From Clostridia bacterium (GTDB lineage: Bacteria; Bacillota; Clostridia; Peptostreptococcales; Acidaminobacteraceae), in contig JAGYOH010000015.1 in the NCBI GenBank assembly GCA_018399635.1, forward strand, positions 10,880 to 74,879: a DNA stretch of 64,000 nucleotides, given 5' to 3'. The translations under genes were made by a program, and so were the position numbers. The notes beneath the pieces are model-generated. The model was not told the DNA's origin, did no database searches, and was given only the letters and a program-made list of their open reading frames with translations. Positions 4,632-47,877 of the stretch are shown here, one piece after another. The stretch's first letter is position 1. Each line of letters begins with the position of its first letter.

Positions 4632-5991
4632 GGTCTCCCTCCTCCTTGGTCATGATCCTGGCTTGCACATAGATGGCCGTCTCAATGCGTTTTTTCTCCA
4701 TTTCACAGCCGATCTCGTAGGGGATCGTGATATCGCCGTTGAAATTGTAGGCATTGGCATGACAGCCGCCGCTGCAGTAGAATCTCGCCCAGCAGCTTCT
4801 GCAGCTGGGTTTGTTGTAGATATGGGCGTTCTTGAAGGTCAGACTGATGTCCGCATCCCAGGTTTCCTCCAGAATATTGCCCATTTTCATCTCATCATTG
4901 CCCACGAACTGATGACAGGGATAGATGTCCCCCTCGGGGGTGACGGCGATGTATTCCGTACCGGCCCCGCAGCCGCTGAGCCGTTTGATGATGCAGGGCC
5001 CCTGTTCCAGATCCAGATTGAAATGGAAAAAGCTGAAGGCCTCTGGGGTCCCGTGGGTGCGGATCATCTCCTCGGCCAGCCGTTCATATTCGGAGAAGAT
5101 TTTCGGCAGGTCCTCCTCCTGGATGGCGTACTTCATCTGAGGCTCCGTCACCACCGGCTCCAGGGAGGTGCTCTTGAAGCCCAGGTCCCGGTAATGGAAG
5201 GCGTCCTCGGCAAAGTCCAGATTGAAACGGGTGAAGGTGCCCCGGATGAAGTAATCCTTGCTGCCCCGTTTCGCCACCATCGCCTTGAATTTCGGCACGA
5301 TGGTGTCATAGCTGCCTTCGCCTCTCAGGCCGGGTCGCATCCGGTCGTTGACACTTTTCCGGCCGTCAAGGCTCATGACCACGTTGTCCATTTCTTCATT
5401 GAGATAATCCATGATTTCCTCGTCGAGGAGGACCCCGTTGGTGGTCATGGTATAGCGGAAACGCTTGTTGTACAACGGCTCCAGGCTTCTGCCGTAGGCG
5501 GCGATTTCCTTGACCGCTTCAAAATTCATCAGGGGCTCTCCCCCGAAAAAATCCACCTCGAGGTTGTAGTGATTCCCGCTGTTTCTGGCCAGATAAGCCA
5601 GGGCCTTCTTTCCCATCTCGGCGCTCATGAGAGACCTCGATCCCTGGTAGTCCCCCTGGGAAGCGAAGCAGTAGCCGCACCTGAGATTGCAATCATGGGC
5701 GACATGAAGACACATGGACTTGATCACCGGTTTGCGGTTCTTGAACTGGATATTGTTCTCATAGGTGTCCGGGGTGAAAAGCTGCCCCGCCTTTTTGAGC
5801 GCTTCGATTTCCTCCAGGGCCTCCAGCACCGTGGCCTCGTTATAGAGGGCGGCGTACTTTTCCAGAAGGGCCGCCTTTCCGGCGTCGTAATCCCCGATCA
5901 GGCCGTAGACCAGGGGATCCACCAGGTGGATGGCCCCGCTGCTGATATCGAGGACGATATTCAAATCGTCCTTTTGAAATTGATGTATCAT
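4621..5991 (-). CDS. scfB: radical SAM/SPASM thioether-forming maturase for the SCIFF peptide
   Basis: 456 aa. CNLRCGYC radical-SAM cluster motif near the N-terminus. C-terminal Cys-rich SPASM region (CGAG...YPCHQF...CRSCWARFYCSGGCHA). It lies directly downstream of the SCIFF precursor. Confidence 0.9.
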   Translation of the reverse strand: MIHQFQKDDLNIVLDISSGAIHLVDPLVYGLIGDYDAGKAALLEKYAALYNEATVLEALEEIEALKKAGQLFTPDTYENNIQFKNRKPVIKSMCLHVAHDCNLRCGYCFASQGDYQGSRSLMSAEMGKKALAYLARNSGNHYNLEVDFFGGEPLMNFEAVKEIAAYGRSLEPLYNKRFRYTMTTNGVLLDEEIMDYLNEEMDNVVMSLDGRKSVNDRMRPGLRGEGSYDTIVPKFKAMVAKRGSKDYFIRGTFTRFNLDFAEDAFHYRDLGFKSTSLEPVVTEPQMKYAIQEEDLPKIFSEYERLAEEMIRTHGTPEAFSFFHFNLDLEQGPCIIKRLSGCGAGTEYIAVTPEGDIYPCHQFVGNDEMKMGNILEETWDADISLTFKNAHIYNKPSCRSCWARFYCSGGCHANAYNFNGDITIPYEIGCEMEKKRIETAIYVQARIMTKEEGDHDR

Positions 5992-8250: not shown

Positions 8251-9372
<1,122 letters not shown>

Positions 9373-10398
9373 CTAAATGATCAACATGGCATCGCCAAAG
9401 CTGAAGAATCGGTATTTTTCCTCCACGGCCTCCTGATATGCCGCCATGATCAGGTCCCGGTCAGCAAAAGCGCTGACCAGCATGATCAGGGTCGATTCCG
9501 GCAAATGGAAGTTGGTGATGAGGCCATCCACGATCTTGAAGGTGTAGCCGGGATAAATGAAGATATCCGTCGAGCCTGAGCAGGCCTCCAATACCCCGTG
9601 CCGGGTCATGATGGATTCCAGGGTCCTCGTGGAGGTGGTGCCCACGGCAAAGACCCTGCCGCCCCCTTCCCGGGCCTTTTGGATAATCCCGGCATTCTTT
9701 TCATCGATGGCATAAAATTCCTCGTGCATCTCATGGTCGGTGATGTTCTCCGCCTTCACCGGTCTGAAGGTTCCCAGGCCCACATGGAGGGTCACCCGAG
9801 CGATCCTGACCCCCTTTTTCTCCAGGGCCCCGAGGATTTCCTGCGTGAAATGCAGACCGGCGGTGGGGGCCGCCGCTGAACCCACGGCACTGGCATACAC
9901 CGTCTGATAGCGGTCCTTTTCCTCGAGTTTCTCCTTGATATAGGGAGGAAGGGGCATTTCACCGATTTCATCCAGGAGGGTCATGAAATCCCTCTTGGCG
10001 TCAAATCGGACCTTTCTGAGTCCACCGGGGAGAATCTCGAGGATGCTTGCCGAAAGTTCTCCGTCGGCAAAGGTGAAGGTCTCCCCGGGTCGGGCCTTTT
10101 TCCCGGGCTTGACCATGCAGGCGTAGGTATCGGGCTCCGCCGCCGCACTGAGTATCAAGAATTCCACCCTGGCTCCGGTGGCCCTGGTCCCGAAAATCCT
10201 TCCGGGGATGACCTTGGTGTCATTGATGACCAGGACATCCCCCTCCCTCAAATAGCTGACGATGTCCTTGAAGCCTTGATGGGCGATGGTCCCGGCCCCC
10301 CGGTCCACCACCAGGAGCCGGGATTCCGACCGGTTCCTGATGGGAAACTGAGCAATCAGCTCCTGGGGCAATTCGTAATAAAAGTCACTGGTTTTCAT
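9373..10398 (-). CDS. queA: S-adenosylmethionine:tRNA ribosyltransferase-isomerase
   Basis: 341 aa. MKTSDFYYELPQELIAQFP..., AAPTAGLHFT, VGTTSTRTLE. Confidence 0.97.
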   Translation of the reverse strand: MKTSDFYYELPQELIAQFPIRNRSESRLLVVDRGAGTIAHQGFKDIVSYLREGDVLVINDTKVIPGRIFGTRATGARVEFLILSAAAEPDTYACMVKPGKKARPGETFTFADGELSASILEILPGGLRKVRFDAKRDFMTLLDEIGEMPLPPYIKEKLEEKDRYQTVYASAVGSAAAPTAGLHFTQEILGALEKKGVRIARVTLHVGLGTFRPVKAENITDHEMHEEFYAIDEKNAGIIQKAREGGGRVFAVGTTSTRTLESIMTRHGVLEACSGSTDIFIYPGYTFKIVDGLITNFHLPESTLIMLVSAFADRDLIMAAYQEAVEEKYRFFSFGDAMLII

Positions 10399-31334: not shown

Positions 31335-34300
31335 TCATGCCCTTCCTCGGGCCGGGTCCTTTTCCTCAAACAACACCGTAAAAATAACAGGAATCACGAT
31401 CAAAGTCAACAGGGTGGAAACACTCAAGCCGAAAATCAGGGCGATGGCCATGGGAACAAAGAGAGTGCTGCCGGAAACCGCCAGGGGAATCAGTCCGAAA
31501 ACCGTGGTGATGGTGGTGAGCATGATGGGCCGGAATCGTTTGGCAACGGCATTTTCAACCGCAACGTGCAAGTCGTCCCCCGCCTTGATTTCCTTGTTGA
31601 TGTAATCCAGCAGCACAATGGCGTTGTTCACCACGATTCCAAAGAGACTGACCATGCCGAAGAGGGCCATGAAGGAGATGTTGAGCCCGAAAATCCACAA
31701 CCCCCAGATTGAACCGATGCTGGCCAGGGGGATGGTGAGGAGGATCAGCAAGACTTTTTTGAAGGAATTGAATTGAAAAATCAGGATGATCAGGATCAGC
31801 ATCAGGGAATAGATGGCCAGAATTCCGATGGAACCGAAATACTGGAGGATTTTTGCCGTTTCCCCGTCGAAGTCCACCGCCACGGGATATTCCCTTTGGG
31901 TGAAGATCTCCCTCAACCGGCTCTCCACGGCCAGGGGATTGGCGTGATCCGCCAGATCGGCGCTGATGGTGATGGCCATGAGACGCTCGTATTGATTGAT
32001 CTGGGGAATCTGACTCTTGATGGTGATGTCCACGAGATTTCTCAGGGGCACCTTGACCCCGCTCGGACTGAAGAGGGCGATGGCCTCAAGGGATTCCACC
32101 GAATCGATTCGACCCTTCAAGACCAGGGATCTTAGGACACCGTCCACCTCGACATCATCGAAGGTCATGCTGCCCACGGCCAGGGCGATTTCCCGCCGAA
32201 TCTGCCCCTCCGTGATGCCGTAGACCTCCATTTTTTCCCAGGAGGGGGCGATATCATAGACCAGGGACTCCCGGGCGGCGTCATCACTGACGTTTTTCAC
32301 CCCCGGGACGGTTTTGAGATCTTCCTTGATGAGCTCGGCATAATGATGGAGCTCCTCCGGGTCATGGGAGGTGACGATGAGTCGGATGGGATTGCCGATG
32401 GGCTCTCCCTGCTCCAGGCGGTTGACGGTGATTTCAGAACCCGGCACGGCGGCGTCCAGTCGTTCCTTGAGTTGTTCAAGATAGTCTCCCAGGGAATCCT
32501 CCTGGGCCTCGATCCTCTCGAGGTCGAGATCCACATAGAACTGGGCCACATCCACCGAGTCCGTGATGGGAATCAGGGTGTTGTAGAACTTGGGCAAGCC
32601 CCTTCCCACGGTGGCCAGGACTTGATCCACCCCCTCCTCCCCATTGATGACATCGAGCAGGATCCTGCCCTCCTCGAGGGTCTTCTCAAAATCTCCGTGA
32701 TTGTTGGTCCTGAGATTGACGTAGACGATATCGCTGTCGGCATAGGGAAAGAACTGGAGTCCCAGACTCATCCCCATCCACACCGTCAGGGCCAGGGTGA
32801 TGAAGATGACAAGGGCCAGGCTTTTTCGGCGATGGAGAAAAAATTTCAGCAGGTTGAGGGAGAGATTCTTGAAACGGTCATGGGCGACCCGGGCTCTGGT
32901 GGGCACGAGGAAGCCGCGGCTCAGAACCGGTGTGAAGACGACTGAAACCCCGTAGGAGGTCAGCAGGGTGATCATGATGATCAGAGGCAGTGAATGGATG
33001 TATTCTCCCGCCACGCCGCTTAGAACCAGCAGGGGAAGGAAGGCAAACACCGTGGTCAAAGTCGAAGTGAGCACCGGCATGGAAACGTCCCCCACCCCCT
33101 CTGAAACCGCCACGGCCTTCGATTGTCCTTCATCAATCCTCACCTGGACCGAGTCGATGATGACGATGGCATTGTCCACCAGCATTCCCAGTGAGATGAT
33201 CAAGGCGGCTATGGAAATCTGATGAATCTTCATGCCCATGAAATTCATGAGGGTGAAGGAGATCATCAGGGTCATGGGGATCGCCGCGGAAACCACCGCC
33301 GCATTCCTGAGCCCCATGCCGAAAAACACCGTCAGCATCACCAGCACAATGCCGACGATGAAGCTTGTTGAAAAATCCCAAAGGGAATCCTTGATGATGT
33401 CCGCTGAAAAATGAGGCGTGATCAAGGTGTATTCCGGTGGCAGAGCCAGACCGGACAGGGCTTCCTCCATGGTCTCGGAAGCCGCCAGCACATTGATTTC
33501 CTCGTTGAAATAGACGGAAAACAGGACCCCCGTCCCTTCTGAATGGATGACCTGGGGACCATAGGGCTCGGGATCGATGAGAACCTCGGCGATTTCCTTG
33601 AGTTGAACCGTTGAAAGACTGGCCGGATTGTTGAAAATCACGATGTTTTCGATTTTTTCTCTGGAAACCGCCTGATCCATGCTCAGATCGATGTAACTGT
33701 CCTCCACCTGGATGTTCCTGATGGGGGTGGATCTCAAATTGCCCTCGATGATTGCGTAAATCCTTTCCAGAGACAGTCCCATGGCATTGGCCTTCATCAG
33801 GTCCACCTCGATGAGCAGGCGATGGGGCTCGTCTCCGAGGACATCGACCCGGGTCGTTCCCTCGACTGAGGTGAGAATGTACTCCAGGCGGTCCACGAGA
33901 ACCGGATCCACCGGGGCGTCAAAATGATTGATCAGCAGATAATAAGCGTCCGCCGTGTCCACCAGATCGGTTTTGACAAGGACCTCCCTGACTCCTGAAG
34001 GCAGCTCTGATCTGATCTTGTCCACCAGCTCTGAAAGACTGGCGTAGGCCTTGTCGACATCCGCGTCCACGTCAAGACGCAGGACCACGTTGGACACGGA
34101 ATCCCTCGACGTGGAACTTGAGTAATCATAGTCCTCCACCTTGATGATCTGGTTCTCGATGACATCCGTGACTTCACGTTTCACCATCTGGGCCGTAGCC
34201 CCGGGATAAATGGTGGTGATCACCGCCGCCGGGGCTTCGATTTCAGGGAATTCCTGCTTGGGCATTTCATAAAAGGAATACAGTCCCGTCAAAAGAAAGA

Positions 34301-34358
34301 TTCCGGCGATGAAATAGATGATCTTCGAGGCTCCGAGAATCTTCTCGTAAATCTTCAT
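31335..34358 (-). CDS. RND efflux transporter permease (AcrB/AcrD/AcrF family)
   Basis: 1007 aa, 12-TM two-lobed architecture, typical N-terminus ...FPEIEAPAAVITTIYPGA. 4-nt overlap with the adaptor gene. Confidence 0.93.
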   Translation of the reverse strand: MKIYEKILGASKIIYFIAGIFLLTGLYSFYEMPKQEFPEIEAPAAVITTIYPGATAQMVKREVTDVIENQIIKVEDYDYSSSTSRDSVSNVVLRLDVDADVDKAYASLSELVDKIRSELPSGVREVLVKTDLVDTADAYYLLINHFDAPVDPVLVDRLEYILTSVEGTTRVDVLGDEPHRLLIEVDLMKANAMGLSLERIYAIIEGNLRSTPIRNIQVEDSYIDLSMDQAVSREKIENIVIFNNPASLSTVQLKEIAEVLIDPEPYGPQVIHSEGTGVLFSVYFNEEINVLAASETMEEALSGLALPPEYTLITPHFSADIIKDSLWDFSTSFIVGIVLVMLTVFFGMGLRNAAVVSAAIPMTLMISFTLMNFMGMKIHQISIAALIISLGMLVDNAIVIIDSVQVRIDEGQSKAVAVSEGVGDVSMPVLTSTLTTVFAFLPLLVLSGVAGEYIHSLPLIIMITLLTSYGVSVVFTPVLSRGFLVPTRARVAHDRFKNLSLNLLKFFLHRRKSLALVIFITLALTVWMGMSLGLQFFPYADSDIVYVNLRTNNHGDFEKTLEEGRILLDVINGEEGVDQVLATVGRGLPKFYNTLIPITDSVDVAQFYVDLDLERIEAQEDSLGDYLEQLKERLDAAVPGSEITVNRLEQGEPIGNPIRLIVTSHDPEELHHYAELIKEDLKTVPGVKNVSDDAARESLVYDIAPSWEKMEVYGITEGQIRREIALAVGSMTFDDVEVDGVLRSLVLKGRIDSVESLEAIALFSPSGVKVPLRNLVDITIKSQIPQINQYERLMAITISADLADHANPLAVESRLREIFTQREYPVAVDFDGETAKILQYFGSIGILAIYSLMLILIILIFQFNSFKKVLLILLTIPLASIGSIWGLWIFGLNISFMALFGMVSLFGIVVNNAIVLLDYINKEIKAGDDLHVAVENAVAKRFRPIMLTTITTVFGLIPLAVSGSTLFVPMAIALIFGLSVSTLLTLIVIPVIFTVLFEEKDPARGRA

Positions 34359-35452
34359 GGGGCCACATCCCGCTCTTCGTAGACCACGATTTCCTGATCC
34401 TTGACGAGATGGTTGCCCTCGAGCACGACCCGTTCACCGGCTTCGATCCCCGACACCACCACCCGGTCGTCCACAAGGTAGAGCACCTCGACGGCTCTTG
34501 AATGGGCCCTGTCCTCCTCGTCCACCGTCAGGACATAAAACCCCTCCCCCTCACCGAGGATGGCGTAAATCGGCAGTACCACCCCGGTATGGGCCTCATG
34601 GATTTTTTCCACCCTGACCACCTGTCCCATGGGAATCCGGGCCTCCACCAGGATTGTCAACTCGTATTCCAGGGTCACGGGGTCCGGCGATTTCCCGATT
34701 TCCATGACCCGTCCCCCGATGACCGTTTCTCCGTAACGGATCTTGACCAGGTCATCGATTTCAAACTCATAAAGCTCTTCACTGCTGACATGGATCATGA
34801 CATGGGTCCCCGCCTGGGCGAAGGCCACCACGGGAGTGCCTGCCGGCACCACCTCGCCGGGTTCGAAAAACCGTCTGGCAAGCATCCCGTCCCTCGGGGC
34901 GATGAGCTCGAAATTTCCCTCGGCCCCGGCGATTTCTTCGTAATAGGTTCTGGCCTTGTTCATCTGACTGAGGGCGCTGGCATAGGCCTCCACGGCATTT
35001 TCATACGTCAGCCTCACCTCGTCAAGGGCGCTCTTTGAAACGCTTCCCGTTTCATAGAGTGCGCTGAAGTCTTCATACCGGTTCAAGAGAAAATCCCTTT
35101 GATCCAGGGCCTGGTTCACCTGGTTCAAGGCCGAATCGTAGTCTCTTCGTGCCCCCTCCACCTGGCTTTCATAACCCAGGGGATCAAGGCGCACCAGGAG
35201 TTCCCCCGCTTCAACAAACTCATTCTCATCAAAGAAGAAGGTCTCGATCTCTCCCGAAAGACGAAAGGAAAGCAGGGTCTCCCGGGCATATCCCACGACG
35301 CCGGCATAACTTTTTTTGATTTCCAGAGTTTCAATCTGCGCGTTGACTGTCCCTACCCGCGTTTTCAGATCCGTGGTCTCGAGGGACTCCTGCTGACAAC
35401 CCAGGAGCAATCCTCCAAGAATCAATACCGCAATCCAACCTTTGACTTTCAA
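34355..35452 (-). CDS. RND efflux periplasmic adaptor subunit (HlyD/MFP family), lipoprotein
   Basis: Lipoyl, hairpin and beta-barrel pattern. A TTG start at 35452 is 8 nt after GGAGG and gives MKVKGWIAVLILGGLLLGC (lipobox). The track start at 35512 lacks an SD. Confidence 0.85.
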   Translation of the reverse strand: MKVKGWIAVLILGGLLLGCQQESLETTDLKTRVGTVNAQIETLEIKKSYAGVVGYARETLLSFRLSGEIETFFFDENEFVEAGELLVRLDPLGYESQVEGARRDYDSALNQVNQALDQRDFLLNRYEDFSALYETGSVSKSALDEVRLTYENAVEAYASALSQMNKARTYYEEIAGAEGNFELIAPRDGMLARRFFEPGEVVPAGTPVVAFAQAGTHVMIHVSSEELYEFEIDDLVKIRYGETVIGGRVMEIGKSPDPVTLEYELTILVEARIPMGQVVRVEKIHEAHTGVVLPIYAILGEGEGFYVLTVDEEDRAHSRAVEVLYLVDDRVVVSGIEAGERVVLEGNHLVKDQEIVVYEERDVAP

Positions 35453-35468
35453 TTTCCCTACCTCCAAG

Positions 35469-35711
35469 CTAAGTGACCGGAATTTCCAAAACAATCGGGT
35501 TTTTGAGTTCATCTTCCATAAGAATCTCTTCCTTGACCAGCCCGATAATCCTGTAACCAGTAATATTATACCTCAATACCACTTGATTATAAACGAAATG
35601 CCGTTGGTAGGGAATAGTCGGCTTGAGGACTTTCCTCAGGGAAAGGCGGTTCACGGGAATCAGGACCGAAAGATACCTCCGGTCCTGATAATACAGGACT
35701 GCGACCTTCAC
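35469..35711 (-). CDS. hypothetical soluble protein, 80 aa
   Basis: GTGA start/stop overlap with the pilin gene; it ends 16 nt before the adaptor start. No TM, no recognisable family. Coding status rests on position only. Confidence 0.4.
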   Translation of the reverse strand: MKVAVLYYQDRRYLSVLIPVNRLSLRKVLKPTIPYQRHFVYNQVVLRYNITGYRIIGLVKEEILMEDELKNPIVLEIPVT

Positions 35712-35890
35712 TTGTCCAGGTCCTGGATGTTGATCTCTACGGTCTTGATGTCATCGATCAGTCCCAGGGTGTATTCCAGGACAAAGGTCTTGAAAATCAG
35801 GGCAAGACCCACCAGGATGGCAATCAGAATGACCAGTTCGATGGTCCCGAACCCCTGGTTGCTTCTGCTTTCTTTCAGGTTGGACCCCAC
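35708..35890 (-). CDS. Flp/type IVb pilin-like protein, 60 aa
   Basis: A GTG at 35890, 9 nt after GGAAAGGAG, gives MGSNLKESRSNQG|FGTIELVILIAILVGLALIF...: a short polar leader ending in Gly, Glu at +5, and a hydrophobic helix. Confidence 0.6.
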   Translation of the reverse strand: MGSNLKESRSNQGFGTIELVILIAILVGLALIFKTFVLEYTLGLIDDIKTVEINIQDLDK

Positions 35891-35979
35891 AAGACGACAC
35901 TCCTTTCCTATCAATTTTTTTGCGGCGGTTTCCTTGGCCAGGCTTTCCTTGTCCCTTAGAAGGCGTTCCGGGACCCTCC

Positions 35980-36660
35980 CTAGAGCAGCTGCTCCAGATG
36001 GGGCAGCAGAATCAGAACAATCAGGTTGACCAGATAAAGGGCCATGGGGATCATGAGGCCCTCGGAGAGCTTCTCGGTAGCCATCCTTTTGGATTCAAAG
36101 AAAGCCTTGATGGCTTCCTCGTGGATGAAGGCCATTTCATCGAGAATCTGCTCTGAATCATAGAAGCGGGTTTTTTTCAGGGTCAGGATCAGCTGGTTCA
36201 AATGGGTCTGGCTCACCTCCTGGGCAAAGGCCTCCAGCCCTTCAAAGTCACCCCGGCCGTTTCTGATGAGATGCCACAGGACAAGATCGGACCCCGGCTT
36301 CTTGAAAACCCCTTCCAGGACACCCCCCTCCAGCAGGTGGTGGTAAAAGGACCCCATCAGGTCAATGACGGCTTCGAGGCTTTTCATGCGGCTCCTGGCC
36401 AGTGACTCCTTGACATAGGAGGCGTAGATTCCCGACAAGAGCCCCAGGGCCGCCAGCAGGGTCAGGGGTTTGCCTGAGAAAAGATAAAAGAGGGTCCCCA
36501 GGGCGAAGAAGCCGTCGAGGGTGTTTCTGGCCTGGACAAAGAGTTCCTCTCTGAAAAGAGGTTCCGACTTGAAGAATTCATCCGCCAGAATCAGCACCAG
36601 GGGCTTGATTCCCCAGGTGTACAGCAGAAACAGGGCCGGGAGCCACAGCAGTCGGATCAT
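35980..36660 (-). CDS. TadC-like (T2SS-F-domain) pilus assembly membrane protein
   Basis: ATGA overlap with the upstream ORF. MIRLLWLPALFLLYTW... has TM helices at both ends and a cytoplasmic helical middle. The 62-aa N-terminal extension in the track is implausible. Confidence 0.68.
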   Translation of the reverse strand: MIRLLWLPALFLLYTWGIKPLVLILADEFFKSEPLFREELFVQARNTLDGFFALGTLFYLFSGKPLTLLAALGLLSGIYASYVKESLARSRMKSLEAVIDLMGSFYHHLLEGGVLEGVFKKPGSDLVLWHLIRNGRGDFEGLEAFAQEVSQTHLNQLILTLKKTRFYDSEQILDEMAFIHEEAIKAFFESKRMATEKLSEGLMIPMALYLVNLIVLILLPHLEQLL

Positions 36661-37235
36661 TGCTGATAGATGATGTAAAGACTCATCCCCTGGGCCAGAA
36701 AAATCATGAACAGGGAAAGCCCTTTGACCAGAGGGTCCAGGGCATGGACCTCGGTGATCGTTCCCAGGATGATCAGGGGCAGATAACGCATCAACTCCAC
36801 CTCCCACATATTTTTGCGATGAATGCCCCAGATTTCCTCCCGCCACCTGATCCGCCTCAGAATCATGGCAAGCTCCCGCTGAAGACTCTCATGATTGTAC
36901 TCTCTGGTCCCCTGGATCACTTCATAGACGTGGCTTCTCTGGTCCAGGACCCGGTCCAGACTTTCCTTGAATTGCTGGTGGTTTGAAGGAATCTCCTCCA
37001 GGGCCTTTTCATAGGCCCTCACGGGGGAATACCCCACCCTCAGATACTGGGAGAAGGAGATGAGTCCCTTTTTCACCCCCTCCTTGAGATGCCAGACGGG
37101 CTTGAGCCTCCACTCGATGACAAACAGGGCCATGAGAAGCACGAGAATCTCCAGTTGGATCCAGGGCCGCCAACCGTAGACCCAGGACAGCAGCAGGTAG
37201 TAGAAGCCGTAATTGATGCCCACCTGCCACCTCAT
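36657..37235 (-). CDS. TadB-like pilus assembly membrane protein
   Basis: 192 aa with the same TM-helical-TM layout. 4-nt overlap with the ATPase gene. Assigned by position and topology rather than by strong motifs. Confidence 0.62.
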   Translation of the reverse strand: MRWQVGINYGFYYLLLSWVYGWRPWIQLEILVLLMALFVIEWRLKPVWHLKEGVKKGLISFSQYLRVGYSPVRAYEKALEEIPSNHQQFKESLDRVLDQRSHVYEVIQGTREYNHESLQRELAMILRRIRWREEIWGIHRKNMWEVELMRYLPLIILGTITEVHALDPLVKGLSLFMIFLAQGMSLYIIYQQ

Positions 37236-38224
37236 CCGAGGGCCTCGAGTTCCAGGGCCTCAAGATGAAGTTGCCGCCCCTTGAGGGAAACCGCGTCGAT
37301 GGCCTTCAGCCGACGAACCCCCCCCTCCCGGCTCAGATGGACAAAATAGTCGATGCTGCGAGCCAGATTCAAATCAATCGCTTCCTTGGGAATCCCCATT
37401 TCCAGGAGCAGCATGGTGAGTCTGAGGACCATGTCCCGGTTGGAATCGCTGTGGCCGGTACAGACACTCCCCTTGTGGCCGGAGTTGAGGACGTGGATAT
37501 ACTGCAGCACCTCCTCTCTTCTGATCTCCCCCAGTATCAGCCGGTCCGGCCTGAGTCTGAGAGAGGTCTTGATCAGGTCTGAAATACTCACCTCCCGGGC
37601 ATCGTACAACCCCTTTCTCGCCACGAGGTAGACCGCATTGTGGTCCGGGGGCAGTTGGATTTCCCGGGTATCCTCGATGATGATCAAACGTTCCCTGGCC
37701 GGCAGACTCATCAGCAGGGCGTTCAGCAGGGTGGTCTTGCCCGCCGAGGTTTCACCGCTGATGAAGATGTTCTTCTTGTCCTTCATGAGACTCAGCAGAA
37801 AATCACCGGCGTCCCGGCTCATCATCCCCTTGTCGATCAGAGCCTCAAGACCCAGGGGTTCTTGATTCAAGGTCCTCACTGACAGAATGGTCTGACCTGA
37901 CGCCACGGAACCGATGACGGCACTTCCCCGGTAGCGGCCCCTGAGGTTGAAGTTCACCACGGGGGTCGCTTCGTTGAGGTTGATGTTGTGCTTGGAGAAC
38001 AGCCGGTACATGAAGGCGTCATAGCTCTTGCGGGTTTCAAAAAGTTGCGGCACGGTCTCGATCCGGCCTCCTTTTTCGATGTAGATGTTCTCGTAGCCGT
38101 TGAACATCAGTTCCGTCACCCCTTCTTTTTCGAGGAGTTCGAAGATGATTTCATCCTCGGGAATCTTGACCTCCCGGCGTCCCGGCGCGTTCTGGAGCAG
38201 CTCCACGACAAAAGCCTTTTTCAT
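37232..38224 (-). CDS. CpaF/TadA-type secretion ATPase (VirB11-like, short form)
   Basis: 330 aa. Walker A GETSAGKTTLLNAL, Asp box LIIIEDTREI, Walker B/His box RPDRLILGEIR...GHKGSVCTGHS. Confidence 0.9.
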   Translation of the reverse strand: MKKAFVVELLQNAPGRREVKIPEDEIIFELLEKEGVTELMFNGYENIYIEKGGRIETVPQLFETRKSYDAFMYRLFSKHNINLNEATPVVNFNLRGRYRGSAVIGSVASGQTILSVRTLNQEPLGLEALIDKGMMSRDAGDFLLSLMKDKKNIFISGETSAGKTTLLNALLMSLPARERLIIIEDTREIQLPPDHNAVYLVARKGLYDAREVSISDLIKTSLRLRPDRLILGEIRREEVLQYIHVLNSGHKGSVCTGHSDSNRDMVLRLTMLLLEMGIPKEAIDLNLARSIDYFVHLSREGGVRRLKAIDAVSLKGRQLHLEALELEALG

Positions 38225-38505: not shown

Positions 38506-38835
38506 ATGATGACAGATAAGAGAGCCCTTCGAACAAGTGGCAATGACAGGCGAAAAACAAGACCGGGCAAGACAGGATTGATGGTCATCAAGACAGCCTT
38601 CGGGGCGATACCCATCCAAAGGGTCTCCATTGATGAGGCCAGGGCCTTGATGATCACGGCTTTTGAATGTGGCGCGATTTTTTTGACACCGCCGGTATGT
38701 ACGCAGACTCTGTAAAGAAGACTGGCCGCTCACTCTCAAGATATGAGAGCACCTGTCGTGCTTGAAACAAAAAGTCATGTCAGGGACAAAGAAGCGTTGG
38801 TTGAGCATGAATCCGATTAAAACAAAATAAGGTAT
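38506..38835 (+). pseudogene. aldo/keto reductase pseudogene, 5' portion (frameshifted)
   Basis: ...PGKTGLMVIKTAFGAIPIQRVSIDEARALMITAFECGAIF matches the AKR N-terminus. The frame breaks in a T7 run (38678-38684). Adding one T gives FFDTAGMYADSVKKTGRSL. A second shift gives VVLETKSHVRDKEALVEHE. Confidence 0.6.
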
Positions 38836-38850
38836 CACAGGAGGCGTCAA

Positions 38851-40053
38851 ATGAGCAGCAAGAGATATATAGGCATAGATTTTCTCAGAGGGGTATGTAT
38901 ATTCGTTGTACTGATACTGCATATGGCCTTCTATTCCTTTGATGGGATATTTGATGTCGATTTCACAAATCCACCCCCTGTCATCACGGTCATAGGGCTC
39001 CTGCTCATGTTTGCGGGCATCTTTGCCATGATCAGCGGCTTTTCACATGCGACGCAGATCCTTTCAAGACTGGACAAGGGTAGAAACATGAAGGACATAC
39101 TGAAGCACTTGACCCTGGTGGCCCTCTATCTGCTGATCATCGGATTCTTGCAGAAGACAGTCATCGGATCCGGCCATATCCAGTTTGATACCAGAAGCTT
39201 CGACAACACCCTGTTGGTGGAGCTGATCAAGACAGGCGGCTTCAAGTTGCCGGATGTGCATCGTCTGCTCTACATCAACAGTTTGACCATGATGGGCTTG
39301 AATGTCATTTTGCTGGGTCTCGTGTTCAAGATCCTGATTGCCTTGAAAGACAGAATCAATATCAGCAGAACCCTGTATGTTTTATCACTGGTCTATTTCT
39401 TCATTTCCCTGGCCAGGATACCACTTTATGAGGTGTTCATGAATGCGCAGGACGCGGGGAACTACGCCCTGGTCCTTATGCTCAACGTACTCGTCAACAA
39501 GAACAACCCCATTCTGCCCTACTTCGCCTTTGCGCTTTTCGGGGCATGGATCGCCGCCCTCCGGCATGATGAAATCAAAAGGGGGAATCTCTACATTCTC
39601 TTGAATGGATTGGTTTTTCTATTGGTTGGCGCTTATCTCTATGTGAATCTGCCGGACACCATGCTGGAGCGGGCAATCGACACCAAGTGGTTTGCAATCA
39701 TGGGCGCACAGATCGGCCTCTTCCAGTTGATGATCCTGAGTGTGCTTTCCATGAAGACAGCCGACCGGGGCATCAGGCGGTTCATCACGCGCTTCGGCAT
39801 CGCTGGATTCACAATCTATCTATTGGAGCCTGTGGTGACTTCGGTCCTCATCAAGGGAATCAAGGCAGTGCTGCCGGATTTTGAATTCACCATCAACATC
39901 TCCCTGGCCTATGCCGTCTTGATGGCGACAGCCTATGGAATCTTTCTTGCCTGGTGGGAAAGATCAGGTTACAGATATGGGATGGACCATCTCTATACCC
40001 GTCTGTTCAAGGACGTGAAGAGTGCCAAAGAAGAAAAAATGAAGGTGGCGTGA
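38851..40053 (+). CDS. membrane acyltransferase (acyltransferase-3 / DUF1624-like), 400 aa
   Basis: N-terminal RYIGIDFLRGVCIFVVLILHM motif and about 10 TM. AGGAGG SD. Confidence 0.8.
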   Translation: MSSKRYIGIDFLRGVCIFVVLILHMAFYSFDGIFDVDFTNPPPVITVIGLLLMFAGIFAMISGFSHATQILSRLDKGRNMKDILKHLTLVALYLLIIGFLQKTVIGSGHIQFDTRSFDNTLLVELIKTGGFKLPDVHRLLYINSLTMMGLNVILLGLVFKILIALKDRINISRTLYVLSLVYFFISLARIPLYEVFMNAQDAGNYALVLMLNVLVNKNNPILPYFAFALFGAWIAALRHDEIKRGNLYILLNGLVFLLVGAYLYVNLPDTMLERAIDTKWFAIMGAQIGLFQLMILSVLSMKTADRGIRRFITRFGIAGFTIYLLEPVVTSVLIKGIKAVLPDFEFTINISLAYAVLMATAYGIFLAWWERSGYRYGMDHLYTRLFKDVKSAKEEKMKVA

Positions 40054-40057
40054 ATCT

Positions 40058-41392
40058 GTGAGAATCCTCCAAGGCATGATCGACTACATGCAACTGAATC
40101 GACACCGCCGGTATTCCAAGGACCAGTTGAGGAATTACCAGCTGAAGCAACTGAAAAAGTTATATCATCACGCAACGGCAAACAGTCCCTTCTATCGAAA
40201 ACTCTACGGTGGGAGGTCATTCGAGACCCTGGAGGATTTCTATAAGCTGCCCCTCATCAACAAGCAGCTCATGATGGACAATTTCACAGACTTGAACACC
40301 TGTGGCATCGTCAAGGAAGCGGTGTCGGAATATGCTCTCAGGAGAGAGAGGGACCAAGACCATCTCCACTACTATCAGGACCAGTATGTCATCGGCCTGT
40401 CCAGTGGTACCAGTGGCAATAAGGGAATCTACATTACAGACCGCAGTCTCACTGAGCGGCTTCCTTTTGTATTCCTGGCCAGATCGGGCATTCCACTCAG
40501 ACTGCTGCCTTTCAGAATCCTCTTCATGCTCAGAGTCTTCTCCCAGGGATTTGACGATATCAATTCCCGCTTCATCAGTCTGTCCTATCTCTCTACGATG
40601 ACGCCTGTGGACGCGGTCATTGAACAGATCAACACCCTGAAGATCAACGTTCTCATGGCGCCGCCAAGCATGATCAACCGGCTGCTGCCGGGAATCAGTG
40701 AGATCACTTCGGATATCCGCCTGGTCGTCACCTATGCCGAGGTTCTGAGTTTGGAGGAAAAGGAGAAATTCAAGCGCACCTTTCAGGCAGAGGTGATTGA
40801 AATCTATCAAGCATCAGAAGGACAAATGGCCTCGGCCTGCAAGTATGGCCACTTGCATGTCAACGAAGATCTGGTCTTTGTTGAACTCTACGATGAGAGG
40901 AACCAACTGATCAAAGAGCCTGATGTGGTGGGCCATCGAATGGTCATCACCAATCTGGTCAATCATGCCCAGCCCTTGATCCGATATGAGATGAACGACA
41001 TGATCGTCCTTGACACCCCCTGCCGATGCGGGTCGAATTTCAGACGCATCAAGAAAGTGCTGGGGCGTCACGACGATCTGCTTTACTTCTACAGGGACGG
41101 GCAAGAACAATACGTCTTCCCGGATCTTTTCGTCAGATGGATAATCGTCACCAGTGAAAAGATCCGTGAGTTCAAGGTCATTCAGTATCGCATCAACGCA
41201 ATCACGGTCAAACTGGATTTGATTGACTCTGATTCAACGATTGAGGAGGCATTGACTGAGAAACTCACCAGGGAGCTCAGTCACTTTGGCATTCTTGAGC
41301 CTGAGATTTCCATTGAAATGGAAAGGATTGAGTTGCCGAAAGAAAGGAATAAGTTCAAGCGGTTTGAGAATCACAGCGGCCGGAACAGGTGA
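40058..41392 (+). CDS. adenylate-forming enzyme, coenzyme F390 synthetase / phenylacetate-CoA ligase (PaaK)-related
   Basis: 444 aa. N-terminus ...QLRNYQLKQLKKLYHHATANSPFYRKLYGG...LEDFYKLPLINKQ and nucleotide loop LSSGTSGNKG. Confidence 0.8.
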   Translation: MRILQGMIDYMQLNRHRRYSKDQLRNYQLKQLKKLYHHATANSPFYRKLYGGRSFETLEDFYKLPLINKQLMMDNFTDLNTCGIVKEAVSEYALRRERDQDHLHYYQDQYVIGLSSGTSGNKGIYITDRSLTERLPFVFLARSGIPLRLLPFRILFMLRVFSQGFDDINSRFISLSYLSTMTPVDAVIEQINTLKINVLMAPPSMINRLLPGISEITSDIRLVVTYAEVLSLEEKEKFKRTFQAEVIEIYQASEGQMASACKYGHLHVNEDLVFVELYDERNQLIKEPDVVGHRMVITNLVNHAQPLIRYEMNDMIVLDTPCRCGSNFRRIKKVLGRHDDLLYFYRDGQEQYVFPDLFVRWIIVTSEKIREFKVIQYRINAITVKLDLIDSDSTIEEALTEKLTRELSHFGILEPEISIEMERIELPKERNKFKRFENHSGRNR

Positions 41393-41397
41393 GGCGC

Positions 41398-42117
41398 ATG
41401 AGAAGCAGGATCAAAACAAGGGAATTGACGCATATCGCTTTGCTGGTTGCGATTGCCGTGATCGCAAGCCGCCTGAATGTGGACAATCCCCTGCTGGGAT
41501 CCTCATCCAGATTCGGCTTTTCCTTTGTCATCTTCTTGAGCGGGCTCTGGTTTGGACCCTGGAAAGGGGGGATGACCGGTGTGGTCTCCAACCTCCTGGC
41601 ATTCATACTCTTTGACGTAGCGACAGGACCCTTCCATATGGGTTTTGTGCTCAACGCCTTCCTGGCCGGCTTCATTCCAGGACTTTACTTCGAGTGGCTC
41701 CGGAAGCGCTCTGTCAAAACAGATTTCACGGTTTTTTCAATGGGCCTTCTGCTGCTCATCAGTACAGTCTCTGCCGGCTATGTATGGAATCAAGCCTACA
41801 AGGCCGTCATGAAACTCACCGTTATCGTGGGAATCGCGGTCCTGTCACTGGCTATGATCGTCCTACTCTGGAACAACCGCAAGAGACAGGACAAAGCCAG
41901 TGGGACAGTGGTCTCCATTGACAAGTTCCTCTTTATCAGTTTCATCTACAAACTCGTCAATTCTGTGCTCCTTGCACCCCTGTGGCTCTCACAGCTTTAT
42001 GGCAGAAGCTATGCCTTCTACTTTCCAATCCGCCTTGCAAAATTCCCGATAGAAGTCCTCTTGGTGGCCCTTGTGACCTATCTGGTCAGCCGCAAGATTC
42101 CGAGAGTGATGGATTGA
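41398..42117 (+). CDS. ECF-transporter S-component-like membrane protein (folate/FolT family-like) with a C-terminal extension
   Basis: TRELTHIALLVAIAVIASRL...RFGFSFVIFLSGLWFGPWKGGMTGVVSNLLAFILF...GPFHMGFVLNAFLAGFIPGLYF follows the FolT-family pattern as I recall it. No ECF A/T genes are nearby. The ATG at 41398 is preferred to the GTG at 41389. Confidence 0.7.
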   Translation: MRSRIKTRELTHIALLVAIAVIASRLNVDNPLLGSSSRFGFSFVIFLSGLWFGPWKGGMTGVVSNLLAFILFDVATGPFHMGFVLNAFLAGFIPGLYFEWLRKRSVKTDFTVFSMGLLLLISTVSAGYVWNQAYKAVMKLTVIVGIAVLSLAMIVLLWNNRKRQDKASGTVVSIDKFLFISFIYKLVNSVLLAPLWLSQLYGRSYAFYFPIRLAKFPIEVLLVALVTYLVSRKIPRVMD

Positions 42118-42422: not shown

Positions 42423-42450
42423 AAAAAAAAACCCGGGATTCCGGGTTTTT
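42423..42450. terminator. bidirectional intrinsic terminator
   Basis: A9-AACCCGG-gatt-CCGGGTT-T5. On the minus strand the hairpin is followed by U9, directly after the B3/4 gene stop. Confidence 0.75.
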
Positions 42451-43079
42451 CAAGTGGTCGCAATGCCGCATCGAAGGGCCTCGATCGCGATTTCATCCGC
42501 CATCATCGCCTTGAGCTCTTCAAGGTCCCTCCGGGCAAGGGGATCCGCAAAGGCGTAAATCACCAGGAGGATTTCCCGGGTCTCAAGACTCGTAGCGGTT
42601 CTTGCACTGTCACTCGTCGCACTGCCAAAGGCCCCCGCTTCATCTCTCAAGACCGGCAGATCCGCGATATTGAGGTCGCCCCTGCCCACCCCCTCATAGG
42701 AGTCCGTGGCCCTTCCCAGGGAAAAGACGATCTCACCCTGGATTTTTTCAAAATCATACAGACCCAGGGGACGGCCGGTGATGATGCTGTAGTGGTTCAT
42801 CAGGTCCACCAGCCGGTTGATCCGGTACAGGGGCTTGTCCCGCTGGATTCTCCGGATCAGCCCCTCGGAGCTGAGGCGGTAGCGGGTGGGATCCTTCCTG
42901 AAATGACGGTAGAGTCTTCTTCCCCCTTTGATGGCGGGCATTTCCTTGTAATCGAGTCCCTTGACGAAGGCGTAGTCCACCGGGTCATCCCCGGAAAAGG
43001 CCATCACCACCCTGCCCCTGATCCATCCCAGATGGATGGGCAGGTCAGGAATTCTCAGGACTTCATCGATGGCGATCAC
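42450..43079 (-). CDS. stand-alone B3/B4 (PheRS-beta editing-like) domain protein
   Basis: 209 aa. ...GRPLGLYDFEKIQGEIVFSLG...GDLNIADLPVLRDEAGAFGSATSDSARTATSLETREILLVIYAF fits the COG3382/B3_4 pattern as I recall it. GTGA overlap with the upstream stop. Confidence 0.8.
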   Translation of the reverse strand: MIAIDEVLRIPDLPIHLGWIRGRVVMAFSGDDPVDYAFVKGLDYKEMPAIKGGRRLYRHFRKDPTRYRLSSEGLIRRIQRDKPLYRINRLVDLMNHYSIITGRPLGLYDFEKIQGEIVFSLGRATDSYEGVGRGDLNIADLPVLRDEAGAFGSATSDSARTATSLETREILLVIYAFADPLARRDLEELKAMMADEIAIEALRCGIATT

Positions 43080-44103: not shown

Positions 44104-44180
44104 CGGGGCGTGGCTCAGTTTGGTAGAGCATCAGGCTGGGGGTCTGAGGGTCGCAGGTTCAAATCCTGTCGCTCCGACCA
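44104..44180 (+). tRNA. tRNA-Pro (anticodon GGG), CCA encoded
   Basis: Hand-folded cloverleaf: acceptor CGGGGCG/CGCTCCG, D-arm GCTC-AGTTTGGT-AGAGC, anticodon arm TCAGG-CTGGGGG-TCTGA, T-arm GCAGG-TTCAAAT-CCTGT, then ACCA. Confidence 0.93.
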
Positions 44181-45439: not shown

Positions 45440-46204
45440 TCATTCCACCTCCCCCAGGCATCGGTCACAGCCTTCATAACCAAACCGACTGATTCTATCC
45501 ATCATCAGGTTCGGATGCCCGGAACAGCCGATGCGACCCCGGTGCATGATATGGGCCTTGTCAAGACTCATGTGATCAATGATATGGCCGGAATGAGTGA
45601 TAATCAGTCCCGCCTTCCGCTTTGCCGGATGATTGTCATCCAGTGTGAACAGGCTATTGATGAGTTCCCTGACGTCACGCAGCGCCCCGGAATCCACACC
45701 TGAATCCGGTTCATCCAACATTGAAAATTCCGGTGACATCATCAATAGTTGCAAGAGTTCAGAACGCTTGATTTCGCCACCGGACAGCCCGGCGTTTACA
45801 GACCGGTCAAGGAATTCCTCCATTCCCGCTTTCTTCACATATGCAGCGATACGCTCAGCGTCCCCGATTCCTCTGTCGATCTGGTATGCCATGATGTTTC
45901 TGAGTCTCACGCCATCAATAGTGGGGGGACGCTGCCGGGCGATGGCGATGCCCATCCGCGCCCGTTCGTTAATCTCAAGATTCGTTATATCCCTCCCCTT
46001 GAAAACAATCCGGCCCCCAATAATCTTGTAGTTGGAAAAACCCATGATGGTCATCATCAGAGTGGTCTTGCCGCTGCCGTTCGGTCCGAGTAAAGCGTGG
46101 ACCTCTCCACAGGGAATCGTCAGATTCAATCCATCGATGATTCTTTTATCTCCGGCCTGGACGACCAGCTCCCTGATCTCCAGAATATTTCGATTTCCTG
46201 CCAT
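45440..46204 (-). CDS. sufC: Fe-S cluster assembly ATPase SufC
   Basis: LEIRELVVQAGDKRIIDGLNLTIPCGEVHALLGPNGSGKTTL, LSGGEIKRSELLQ, LDEPDSGVD. The ATG at 46204 follows AAGGAGG; the 33-aa track extension is spurious. The C-terminus carries CSGH...GCDRC. Confidence 0.92.
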   Translation of the reverse strand: MAGNRNILEIRELVVQAGDKRIIDGLNLTIPCGEVHALLGPNGSGKTTLMMTIMGFSNYKIIGGRIVFKGRDITNLEINERARMGIAIARQRPPTIDGVRLRNIMAYQIDRGIGDAERIAAYVKKAGMEEFLDRSVNAGLSGGEIKRSELLQLLMMSPEFSMLDEPDSGVDSGALRDVRELINSLFTLDDNHPAKRKAGLIITHSGHIIDHMSLDKAHIMHRGRIGCSGHPNLMMDRISRFGYEGCDRCLGEVE

Positions 46205-46286
46205 TCTTATGATTTCCTCCTTTGGATGAAATCCCGGGATTCTGCGGCATATCCTCACAACAGCCCCCTTGAAACCACTTTGTTTA

Positions 46287-46303
46287 ATGAGAAATATTCT
46301 CAT
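46287..46303. promoter_or_regulatory. 17-bp palindrome ATGAGAA-ATA-TTCTCAT (Fur-family-like box) just downstream of the suf -10
   Basis: Perfect 7-bp arms. The inner 15-mer TGAGAAATATTCTCA matches 11/14 defined positions of the 7-1-7 box TGATAATNATTATCA. Confidence 0.4.
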
Positions 46304-46424: not shown

Positions 46425-46447
46425 GAGAAAAATTATATAGGTGCATT

Positions 46448-46652
46448 AATAGAGGTTGCATCCGACAAGAGTACCTGTTCAAGGGAAAGGGGAGGTTGCC
46501 GAAATGGCCGAATCGGGCTGTTGGGTCTGCATTTAAGAGATGCAGGACTTTGGAGTTTCTATCCCAAAAGAAGCTTCAAGCGCTATTTTTGCGCAGGGAA
46601 AGCATAGTGTTGACGCTATAGGTTTCCTTTTGCCTATGGTTTTTATTTTTTT
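46448..46652 (+). promoter_or_regulatory. lysine riboswitch (L-box) with a terminator expression platform
   Basis: AATAGAGGTTGCATCC...GAGTACC...GGGAAAGGGGAGGTTGCCGAAA...CTGTTGGGTCTGCAT...ATGCAGGACTTTGGAGTTTCTAT matches conserved L-box blocks (AGAGG.GC, AGTA, GAAAGGGGAG..GCCGAA). It is followed by the CTATAGG/CCTATGG stem and T5AT6 (46616-46652). Confidence 0.8.
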
Positions 46653-46671
46653 AAGGAGGCCATCATTCATT

Positions 46672-47877
46672 ATGCAGACATCCGTAGTCAAATTCGGCGG
46701 CACCTCGGTGGGCACCACTCAAAAGATTCAGGTCATCGCCGAGAAACTGGTCAAAAGAAAGCGCCAGGGAGAATCCCTGGTTGTCGTGGTTTCAGCGATG
46801 GGGAAAAAGACCGACGAACTGGTGGACATGGCCAAGGCCATCACCCCCAATCCCGACAAGCGGGAAATGGACATGCTCCTCAGCACCGGTGAGCAGGTCA
46901 CCATCGCCCTCATGACCATGGCGATAAAATCCCTGGGAGTCAAGGCCATTTCACTGACGGGGGGACAGGCCAGAATCCTCACAGACACCACCCATTCCAA
47001 AGCCCGCATCCACAACATCGACCGGGAGAATATCGAGTCCCATCTGAAGGAAGACCATATCGTCGTGGTAGCGGGCTTTCAGGGCATCACTGAAAACGGC
47101 GATATCACCACCCTCGGAAGAGGCGGCTCCGACACCACCGCCGTATCCCTCGCCGCTGTCCTTGGTGCCGGGTGTGAAATCTACACCGATGTCGACGGGG
47201 TCTATACCATCGACCCCAGGAAATATCCCAGGGCCAAAAAACTCAAAACCATCGGCTATGATGAAATGCTCGAAATGGCCTCCCTCGGTGCCGGAGTCAT
47301 CGATGCCAGGGCCATTGAAATGGGTCATAAATACAAGGTCCCCATCACCATCGCCCTCAACACCATGGCGGTGGAAGGCACCTTGATCAAGGAGGTCACC
47401 CCCGAAATGGAAAAGAAAGCCGTCACCGGAATGTCCCTCAATGAAAACATCATCATGGTTTCCGTCAGCCAGCTCCCCTTCAATTCAAAAACCGTGGCAG
47501 AGGTCTTCAAAGAGATTTCCAATCACCATATCATCGTCGACATGATCAGTCTCACGCCTCCCATCGCCGGCAATGTGAGCATCGCCTTCACCATCGACAG
47601 GGACGACCTCAGCGAACTCAAGACCGTCCTTGAAGCCCTTAAAGAAAAAAATCCCACCTGCCGGTTCTCCTTCAACGAGGAACTGGTGATGGTCTCTGTA
47701 GTGGGGGTGGGCATGGTTTCCCAGTCCGGAGTCGCCTCAAGAGTCTTCAATATTTTTGCCGATAACGACATTCACTTCTACCAGGTCACCACCTCGGAAA
47801 TCAGCATCTCCTATACGATCCACCGGGATGATTTTTCCCTGGCGATTGAAAAAATCGCCGACGCCTTCGACCTCTGA
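46672..47877 (+). CDS. lysC: aspartate kinase (lysine-sensitive type, two ACT domains)
   Basis: MQTSVVKFGGTSVG..., VVVVSAMGKKTDELV, GRGGSDTTA. AAGGAGG SD. The track start at 46540 runs through the riboswitch and is spurious. Confidence 0.93.
   Translation: MQTSVVKFGGTSVGTTQKIQVIAEKLVKRKRQGESLVVVVSAMGKKTDELVDMAKAITPNPDKREMDMLLSTGEQVTIALMTMAIKSLGVKAISLTGGQARILTDTTHSKARIHNIDRENIESHLKEDHIVVVAGFQGITENGDITTLGRGGSDTTAVSLAAVLGAGCEIYTDVDGVYTIDPRKYPRAKKLKTIGYDEMLEMASLGAGVIDARAIEMGHKYKVPITIALNTMAVEGTLIKEVTPEMEKKAVTGMSLNENIIMVSVSQLPFNSKTVAEVFKEISNHHIIVDMISLTPPIAGNVSIAFTIDRDDLSELKTVLEALKEKNPTCRFSFNEELVMVSVVGVGMVSQSGVASRVFNIFADNDIHFYQVTTSEISISYTIHRDDFSLAIEKIADAFDL

Follow-up and report, generated by a model that had tools for sequence, protein, structure and literature searches.

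A gene pair for an AT3-type membrane acyltransferase and a TIGR02304 adenylate-forming enzyme, joined by a FolT-like S component in one lineage

Membrane acyltransferases of the AT3/TmAT type take acyl-coenzyme A (acyl-CoA) from the cytoplasm and acylate an acceptor across the membrane. Acetyl-CoA, succinyl-CoA and other common acyl-CoAs are thought to be their donors. In OafB, R14 and H25 are essential, and R14 contacts the 3'-phosphate of CoA in a model of the protein (PMC9833829). Within the TmAT superfamily, the member of solved structure is HGSNAT, determined by cryo-electron microscopy (PMC12423673). The AT3/TmAT reviews that were searched do not mention a ligase or synthetase. Here we describe a locus of a Clostridia bacterium in which a gene for an AT3-like protein is coupled to one for an adenylate-forming enzyme of the PaaK superfamily. 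The locus lies in a 64-kb stretch of contig JAGYOH010000015.1, referred to as the window, and positions are those of the window unless another locus is named. The acyltransferase and the ligase form a widely conserved two-gene module, to which a gene for a folate-type (FolT-like) S component of energy-coupling factor (ECF) transporters has been added in the lineage of the window.

Gene 1 (38851-40053, plus strand, ATG start) encodes a 400-residue integral membrane acyltransferase of the AT3/TmAT fold. Gene 2 (40058-41392, plus strand, GTG start) encodes a 444-residue cytoplasmic adenylate-forming enzyme of the TIGR02304 clade. Gene 3 (41389-42117, plus strand, GTG start) encodes a 242-residue S component of the FolT family, into which about 80 residues are inserted; allowing for an alternative start at the ATG of 41398, its length is 239-242 residues. 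Genes 1 and 2 are 4 nt apart, and the end of gene 1 (AAG GTG GCG TGA) supplies the ribosome-binding site AAGGTGG, 4 nt ahead of the GTG of gene 2. That GTG start is backed by the N-terminal alignment of homologues and by a 100%-identical 444-residue database entry (P0001). The stop of gene 2 and the start of gene 3 overlap in GTGA. An initial annotation, made from the sequence of the window, had read the locus as three packed genes for a membrane acyltransferase of about ten transmembrane (TM) helices, an F390-synthetase/PaaK-like adenylate-forming enzyme and a FolT-family S component. The open reading frames, gap and overlap are as it described, and the profile and fold searches reported below bear out all three assignments.

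The acyltransferase-ligase pair

The ligase was surveyed using one genome per GTDB species, which generated 80 loci with relatives 47-73% identical. An AT3 orthologue was found by tblastn directly upstream of the ligase gene, on the same strand, in 76/80 loci. A truncated AT3 end lies at the contig edge in one more (L063), and two loci (L054 and L067) were excluded from the count because the contig begins too near the ligase, so that 77/78 evaluable loci have the AT3 gene. The sole evaluable locus without it is in a WOR-3 metagenome-assembled genome (MAG) (L042, ligase at 3691-4998, 53% identical). The distance from the AT3 stop to the ligase start is mostly between -4 and +8 nt, and the codons usually overlap. 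Reverse look-ups from three AT3 homologues placed the ligase immediately downstream in 3/3 cases, again with overlapping codons. Across 60 loci the pairwise identities of the AT3 proteins follow those of the ligases (Pearson r 0.81), and none of 2000 Mantel permutations gave a correlation as high. The arrangement of genes 1 and 2 is beyond chance, and the AT3 protein and the ligase are translationally coupled, co-inherited, near-obligate neighbours.

Neither clustering of the neighbours nor Pfam annotation of the 150 distinct protein clusters beside the pair identified another recurring partner. Glycosyltransferase, flippase, polysaccharide and carrier-protein genes did not recur among these clusters, and GNAT domains were found in 6/150, which is background-like. 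Because the pair is near-universal while all other neighbours vary, the conserved entity is a two-gene module. The initial annotation had treated the trio as the unit; the survey upholds the pair and rules out the trio as a general system, the FolT-like gene being present in only five close loci. About 25/80 host genomes bear mollicute labels (Izemoplasma, Acholeplasma and relatives), and many hosts of the pair carry mollicute or Erysipelotrichaceae labels. Paracholeplasma vituli, Liberiplasma polymorphum and an Erysipelothrix strain are among the carriers in culture. Plasmid matches to the ligase were all less than 37% identical and all belonged to the other TIGR02304 clade rather than to the AT3-linked one; phages were not searched.

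Gene 1 matched the Pfam models PF01757 (Acyl_transf_3) with 32.8 bits (cut-off 31) and PF07786 (HGSNAT_cat) with 25.6 bits (cut-off 22). Among 43 orthologues, PF01757 matched 33, and PF07786 and DUF418, which belong to the same clan, matched 16 and 8. Since the margin over the Pfam cut-offs is small, gene 1 represents a divergent AT3 subfamily. A sequence search against the PDB gave no match, and structural relatives were found by fold search alone. The AlphaFold2 model, based on 46 homologues in an alignment assembled from database matches, has ten TM helices (predicted local distance difference test, pLDDT, 87.1; predicted TM-score, pTM, 0.88). A Foldseek search of the PDB with it gave credible matches only to structures of human HGSNAT, with a probability of 1.0 and TMq of 0.49-0.56. 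The motif RYIGIDFLRGVCIF noted in the initial annotation occupies residues 5-18. D10, R13 and H24 are invariant in the 43-46 homologues, as are R138, R189, N212, N218, R274, R314, E326 and K393. R13 and H24 are 11 residues apart, the spacing of R14 and H25 in OafB (PMC9833829). With R13 and H24 invariant and an HGSNAT-like fold in the model, the protein looks catalytically intact. The positive-inside rule, applied to the helices of the model, would place both termini and R13 in the cytoplasm and H24 near the outer face.

Gene 2 passed the NCBIfam model TIGR02304 ("F390 synthetase-related protein") with 266.9 bits (cut-off 251.9). Equivalog hidden Markov models scored far under their cut-offs, both for PaaK (TIGR02155, 54.1 bits against 646.3; NF041878, 58.6 against 700) and for the F390 synthetase FtsA (TIGR03335, 47.4 against 458.7). 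These scores rule out a catabolic PaaK or an F390 synthetase and place the ligase outside the bona fide PaaK enzymes. No paa catabolic genes were found among the Pfam-scanned neighbours in the window. The family profile matched PaaK-type ligases best in the PDB (9s3l, 1e-23; 4r1l, 6e-20), and its matches include the CoA-independent PaaK-like ligases 6siw and 6wuq (NatL2/AjiA1-type). Gene 2 carries the loop SSGTSGNKG, and both TIGR02304 clades keep the SSGTSG loop, YQASEG (YxxxEG), GRxDD and the C-terminal K432 without exception. With the adenylation motifs and the C-terminal lysine all kept, the enzyme looks adenylation-competent. Its relatives form more than 2,000 clusters at 90% identity. 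Among the best 150 of 17,917 representatives no AT3-ligase fusion was found. The long proteins in that set were an MFS-ligase, which is probably a frameshift artefact, a ligase with an unknown C-terminal domain, and P0266, a natural PAP2-ligase fusion from the sister clade.

TIGR02304 is a large unannotated family, and it splits into at least two functional contexts. Distant members, 27-36% identical to gene 2, were found in Bacillus mycoides, Paenibacillus, Pontibacillus, E. coli and Fusobacterium. They share a conserved cluster that runs KASIII, an optional ATP-grasp protein, NAD(P) oxidoreductase, MBL-fold protein and ligase. Accompanying genes, variable in position, encode a GNAT protein, or PAP2 and sterol/acyl-CoA desaturases, or a glycosyltransferase (upstream in Fusobacterium). 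The loci include Bacillus mycoides p237 (L081), the narI-purU island of E. coli KE48 (L082), Fusobacterium vincentii (L084), Pontibacillus (L085) and Paenibacillus urinalis (L086). An AT3 gene is absent from the six distant loci examined, whereas the window and 77 related loci lack the KASIII/oxidoreductase/MBL context of the annotated TIGR02304 members and have the AT3 gene instead. As the distant ligases belong to an AT3-free cluster, the AT3-linked ligases are a separate clade with its own partner. This clade also has insertions of its own compared with the distant ligases, for example at about residues 286-292. The KASIII/MBL cluster has the look of a pathway for a lipid or small molecule; full-text searches found nothing relevant on it or on 9S3L and 9S45, the new PDB entries nearest to the ligase.

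The FolT-like gene and the third position

Gene 3 scored 88.5 bits against TIGR04518, the folate-family ECF S component model (cut-off 60), and 43.5 bits against PF12822 (cut-off 30.7). In phmmer comparisons with solved FolT chains (4z7f, 4e-8; 5d3m, 1e-7) only residues 3-101 and 184-238 were aligned. The intervening residues 102-183, about 80 in number, have no counterpart in those chains; they are hydrophobic and poorly conserved, whereas the flanking parts are strongly conserved. The AlphaFold2 model, whose pLDDT of 73.5 indicates medium confidence, contains extra helices at 113-134 and 139-167. With 242 residues and eight helices in the model, the protein departs from the compact six-helix architecture of S components (about 160-200 residues). 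The top Foldseek matches were nevertheless FolT chains (7nnt_C, 5d0y_A, 4huq_S and 4z7f; probability 1.0, TMt 0.46-0.54). Helix 1 has small-residue spacing of the AxxxA type (IALLVAIAVIA, from the sequence).

Close relatives of gene 3 form only five protein clusters in an index of 5.8 billion proteins. Four of these adjoin an AT3-ligase pair, and the fifth (P0245, in locus L087) stands alone in an unrelated context. Only five close loci, namely the window, L001, L054, L088 and L089/L090, have the FolT-like gene after the pair, and their ligases are 69-76% identical to that of the window. The trio does therefore recur outside the window, in close relatives. The outer flanks of the five loci all differ, and so the trio persists as a unit in that lineage. 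The overlapping start and stop codons and the position kept despite differing flanks show that the FolT-like gene is part of the operon in the window lineage. It is a lineage-specific addition to the two-gene module. A pair without the FolT-like gene occurs as close by as L002, where the ligase is 70% identical. In this Vallitaleaceae MAG the AT3 gene (L002, 5798-6989) is split by a frameshift, which could reflect misassembly or a pseudogene.

No ECF energising module (EcfA/A'/T) is encoded in the window, as the initial annotation had stated for the vicinity of the genes. The sole ATP-binding cassette (ABC) ATPase of the 64 kb (45440-46303, minus strand) lies directly upstream of a SufBD-core gene and is for that reason most likely SufC. 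Group II S components are normally encoded away from the shared EcfAA'T module, typically as single scattered genes, and the "orphan" state of the FolT-like gene is therefore unremarkable.

Other genes occupy the third position in other lineages. A 12-TM carrier of the DcuC family is found there in Acholeplasmataceae (L010, L018, L037 and L048, at about 8334-9767), and an MFS transporter in an Oscillospiraceae MAG (L073, 8485-9885). These genes start 17-25 nt past the ligase gene or overlap its stop. Carriers at the third position in two more lineages are weakly consistent with an import role of the FolT-like protein. A 203-residue GDSL/SGNH protein is translationally coupled to the ligase end in seven Erysipelotrichaceae loci (L068, L069, L071, L072, L074, L075 and L077, mostly at about 8320-8930) and in L091 (6534-7145). 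It has neither a signal peptide nor a TM helix.

Proposed mechanism and alternatives

The ligase appears competent for adenylation, and the AT3 protein keeps the residues that in characterised AT3 proteins are linked with CoA binding and catalysis. Translation and inheritance of the two genes go together. On the simplest reading, the ligase provides a dedicated acyl-CoA otherwise absent from the cell. In the proposed route the cytoplasmic ligase would adenylate a carboxylic acid other than the acyl donors of central metabolism and would most likely yield an acyl-CoA. The cytoplasmic cavity of the AT3 protein would hold this product through R13 and the other invariant basic residues. The thioester would then be threaded through the AT3 pore, and the outward-facing H24 would move the acyl group to an extracytoplasmic acceptor, probably a membrane glycolipid, a lipoglycan or a surface glycan. 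In the window lineage, the FolT-derived S component would most plausibly import the acid or its precursor via the genome's shared EcfAA'T module. Mollicutes are wall-less bacteria. Because about 25/80 hosts carry mollicute labels, neither peptidoglycan nor teichoic acid can be the general acceptor, and the glycolipid, lipoglycan or surface glycan is likelier.

The initial annotation had suggested a route of uptake, activation and trans-membrane transfer. Gene-order conservation strongly supports the part of it that ties acid activation to trans-membrane acyl transfer; the uptake step and the substrate we infer. We put at about even chances the whole proposal, in which a two-gene module supplies a donor and acylates across the membrane and a FolT-like importer has joined it in the window lineage. 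A bolder version appears unlikely to us. It would make the pair a horizontally mobile, self-contained module that adds acyl groups other than acetyl and succinyl to glycolipids or surface glycans in mollicutes, Erysipelotrichia, Clostridia, Caldisericota and others, with the FolT scaffold remodelled to eight helices as an importer of the acyl precursor. If true, ECF S components would gain a new class of substrate.

Several points weigh against the proposal. It is built on sequences and models, and the Pfam AT3 match of gene 1 is barely over threshold. CoA use is uncertain, since some members of the PaaK superfamily make esters or amides straight from acyl-adenylate (acyl-AMP) with no CoA involved, and another, F390 synthetase, adenylylates a hydroxyl group. 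The proposed acceptor lacks support because no glycosyltransferase, flippase or polysaccharide genes recur beside the pair. A cytoplasmic SGNH protein suits an extracytoplasmic finishing step poorly, and it is odd because AT3 proteins often act with an extracytoplasmic SGNH domain. The FolT-like gene, finally, is not beside the pair in 75 or more loci (75/80, >90%), and the L087 copy stands alone.

This last point bears on the place of gene 3, which could be an ordinary folate-type S component that came to lie downstream by accident in one lineage, co-transcribed but without a role in acylation, so that the pair alone is the system. We regard this as possible but doubtful. The absence of the gene from so many loci, including L002 with its closely related ligase, favours it, as do the relative P0245 in unrelated surroundings, the passing score against the folate-family model, the FolT-like fold and the scattered, single-gene habit of group II S components in general. 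On the other hand, the start of gene 3 overlaps the ligase stop and the adjacency is kept in five loci despite the change of all outer flanks. The eight-helix variant is also very rare, with four of its five clusters beside the pair, and its insertion is atypical of a housekeeping folate transporter.

Two further alternatives concern the pair itself. The AT3-like protein could let an exogenous carboxylic acid into the cell, as a channel or as a carrier, and the ligase would trap the acid in the cytoplasm as a CoA thioester for catabolism or lipid synthesis, much as in FadL/FadD or FATP, with no acyl transfer across the membrane. TmAT-fold proteins do have a membrane-spanning cavity or pore (PMC9833829; HGSNAT fold). 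Genes for acceptor synthesis do not recur near the pair, and the distant TIGR02304 ligases lie in clusters of lipid type, with KASIII, desaturases and PAP2. The mollicute and Erysipelotrichaceae labels of many hosts also fit vectorial uptake, these being reduced-genome groups that rely on imported acids. However, the AT3 catalytic signature (R13, H24 and E326) is invariant and would be unneeded in a pure carrier, and the separate downstream transporters (FolT-like, DcuC and MFS) would be redundant if the AT3 protein imported the acid. We know of no TmAT protein demonstrated to be a simple importer, and we consider uptake by this route improbable. More improbable still is a CoA-independent route. 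Here the ligase would itself attach an acyl or adenylyl group to a lipid or small molecule at the membrane, in the manner of the PaaK-like ligases that form esters and amides or of F390 synthetase, and the AT3-like partner would flip, export or further remodel the product. The CoA-independent relatives 6siw and 6wuq speak for it, and so does the PAP2-ligase fusion P0266 of the sister clade, which puts TIGR02304 chemistry at the membrane near lipid phosphates. Against it, the AT3 protein retains the counterpart of OafB R14, which touches the 3'-phosphate of CoA in the model of OafB, together with other invariant basic residues, and an AT3-ligase fusion was found in 0 of the best 150 of 17,917 representatives.

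Under the donor-supply proposal, the pair is an unstudied and widespread type of AT3 system with a built-in donor-supply enzyme, although not a categorically new mechanism. Full-text searches found no relevant paper on TIGR02304 or on a pair of AT3 protein and adenylate-forming enzyme. The constant pairing implies a donor that the cell otherwise does not make. It would mean that many uncultured anaerobes and wall-less bacteria have an undescribed modification of the envelope or of lipids. As the pair is small, self-contained and heterologously expressible, liquid chromatography-mass spectrometry could identify donor and acceptor directly. The ligand of gene 3, a rare and structurally enlarged FolT derivative, may differ from folate.

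Surroundings of the locus and comparison with known systems

The genes flanking the cassette are unrelated to it. Its upstream neighbour is a divergent T2SSE/Tad-type ATPase gene, and the 626-nt gap 5' of gene 1 gave no credible Rfam match to a riboswitch or leader; a sigma-70 promoter scan found nothing upstream of gene 1. The gap contains a decayed, N-terminal aldo/keto-reductase-like fragment (38506-38780, plus strand), in which ...AFECGAIF is followed by FDTAGMYADS... in a different frame. The ATPase belongs to a small Tad/T2SSE-type operon that includes two membrane proteins without a Pfam match (35980-36846 and 36657-37235) and is adjoined by an RND efflux pump and an HlyD-like adaptor (31335-38224, minus strand, for the whole). 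Past the cassette, the opposite strand carries a B3/4-domain gene, a nucleoside hydrolase gene, tRNA-Pro and SufBD/SufC-like genes, and beyond these lies an aspartokinase gene with a lysine riboswitch ahead of it. The tRNA-Pro (GGG) lies at 44104-44180 (plus strand), between the nucleoside hydrolase gene and the SufBD-like gene. The start assigned mechanically to the aspartokinase reading frame (46540-47877) falls within the riboswitch (46442-46593, plus strand, 75.6 bits), and the true start is therefore downstream of the aptamer, near MQTSVVKFGGTS.

A terminator scan called a GC-rich palindromic stem-loop (CCCGG/CCGGG) with flanking A- and T-runs at 42426-42451, on the minus strand. T-runs follow the stem on either strand, as can be read straight from the sequence, and it is possibly a bidirectional terminator common to the cassette operon and the convergent B3/4-domain gene. 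GC content is 0.49-0.51 in the cassette genes and averages 0.54 over the window. Because the GC content of these genes at third codon positions (GC3) is within the range of the neighbours, composition is uninformative on horizontal transfer. No PADLOC anti-phage defence model matched any of the three cassette proteins, and a defence role was set aside. The initial annotation had also reported no carrier protein nearby; none was noticed among the Pfam-scanned neighbours, with no search aimed at small carrier genes having been made.

The initial annotation had likened the trio to D-alanylation by DltA/DltB and to OafA-type O-acylation, which holds as an analogy only. DltABCD follows the same logic, from a cytoplasmic adenylating enzyme through a polytopic membrane acyltransferase to an extracytoplasmic polymer. 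DltB is an MBOAT protein, whereas gene 1 is AT3/TmAT, and the ligases are merely distant relatives. DltABCD also needs the carrier DltC and DltD, neither of which was seen in the operon or the scanned flanks, where no dedicated search was run. A Dlt-like system was ruled out on these grounds. Teichoic acids, the targets of Dlt, are absent from wall-less hosts, and with about 25/80 hosts labelled as mollicutes a wall polymer is not the general target.

PaaK and FtsA share the superfamily fold and the adenylation motifs with gene 2, whose scores against their equivalog models fail widely; nothing in the Clostridia-like context of the window suggests F420. The ligases of the KASIII/MBL clusters are closer, belonging to the same NCBIfam family and having the same core motifs at 27-36% identity, in an entirely different context. 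The FolT proteins of known structure (4z7f, 5d0y, 5d3m and 7nnt) resemble gene 3 in the TIGR04518 match, the aligned terminal parts, the Foldseek rank and the lack of EcfAA'T genes nearby. Gene 3 differs from them in the insertion of about 80 residues (eight helices instead of six), in belonging to a rare subfamily and in having a place within an acyltransferase-ligase operon instead of being encoded by itself.

Gene 1 is most like the stand-alone AT3 O-acyltransferases (Oac, ExoH/ExoZ, OpgC/MdoC, IcaC and CarE) and HGSNAT, with which it has in common a ten-helix membrane protein, the Arg-x10-His of TM1 and an HGSNAT-like fold (PMC9558356, PMC12423673). From its sequence, the same use of cytoplasmic acyl-CoA for acylation on the far side would be expected. 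In contrast to those proteins, the gene 1 subfamily is divergent, barely at the Pfam thresholds, and is found in mollicute-labelled genomes. Gene 1 has no fused or secreted SGNH domain and no glycan-synthesis genes nearby. Above all, the subfamily differs from the stand-alone AT3 proteins in being paired and translationally coupled with a dedicated adenylate-forming enzyme.

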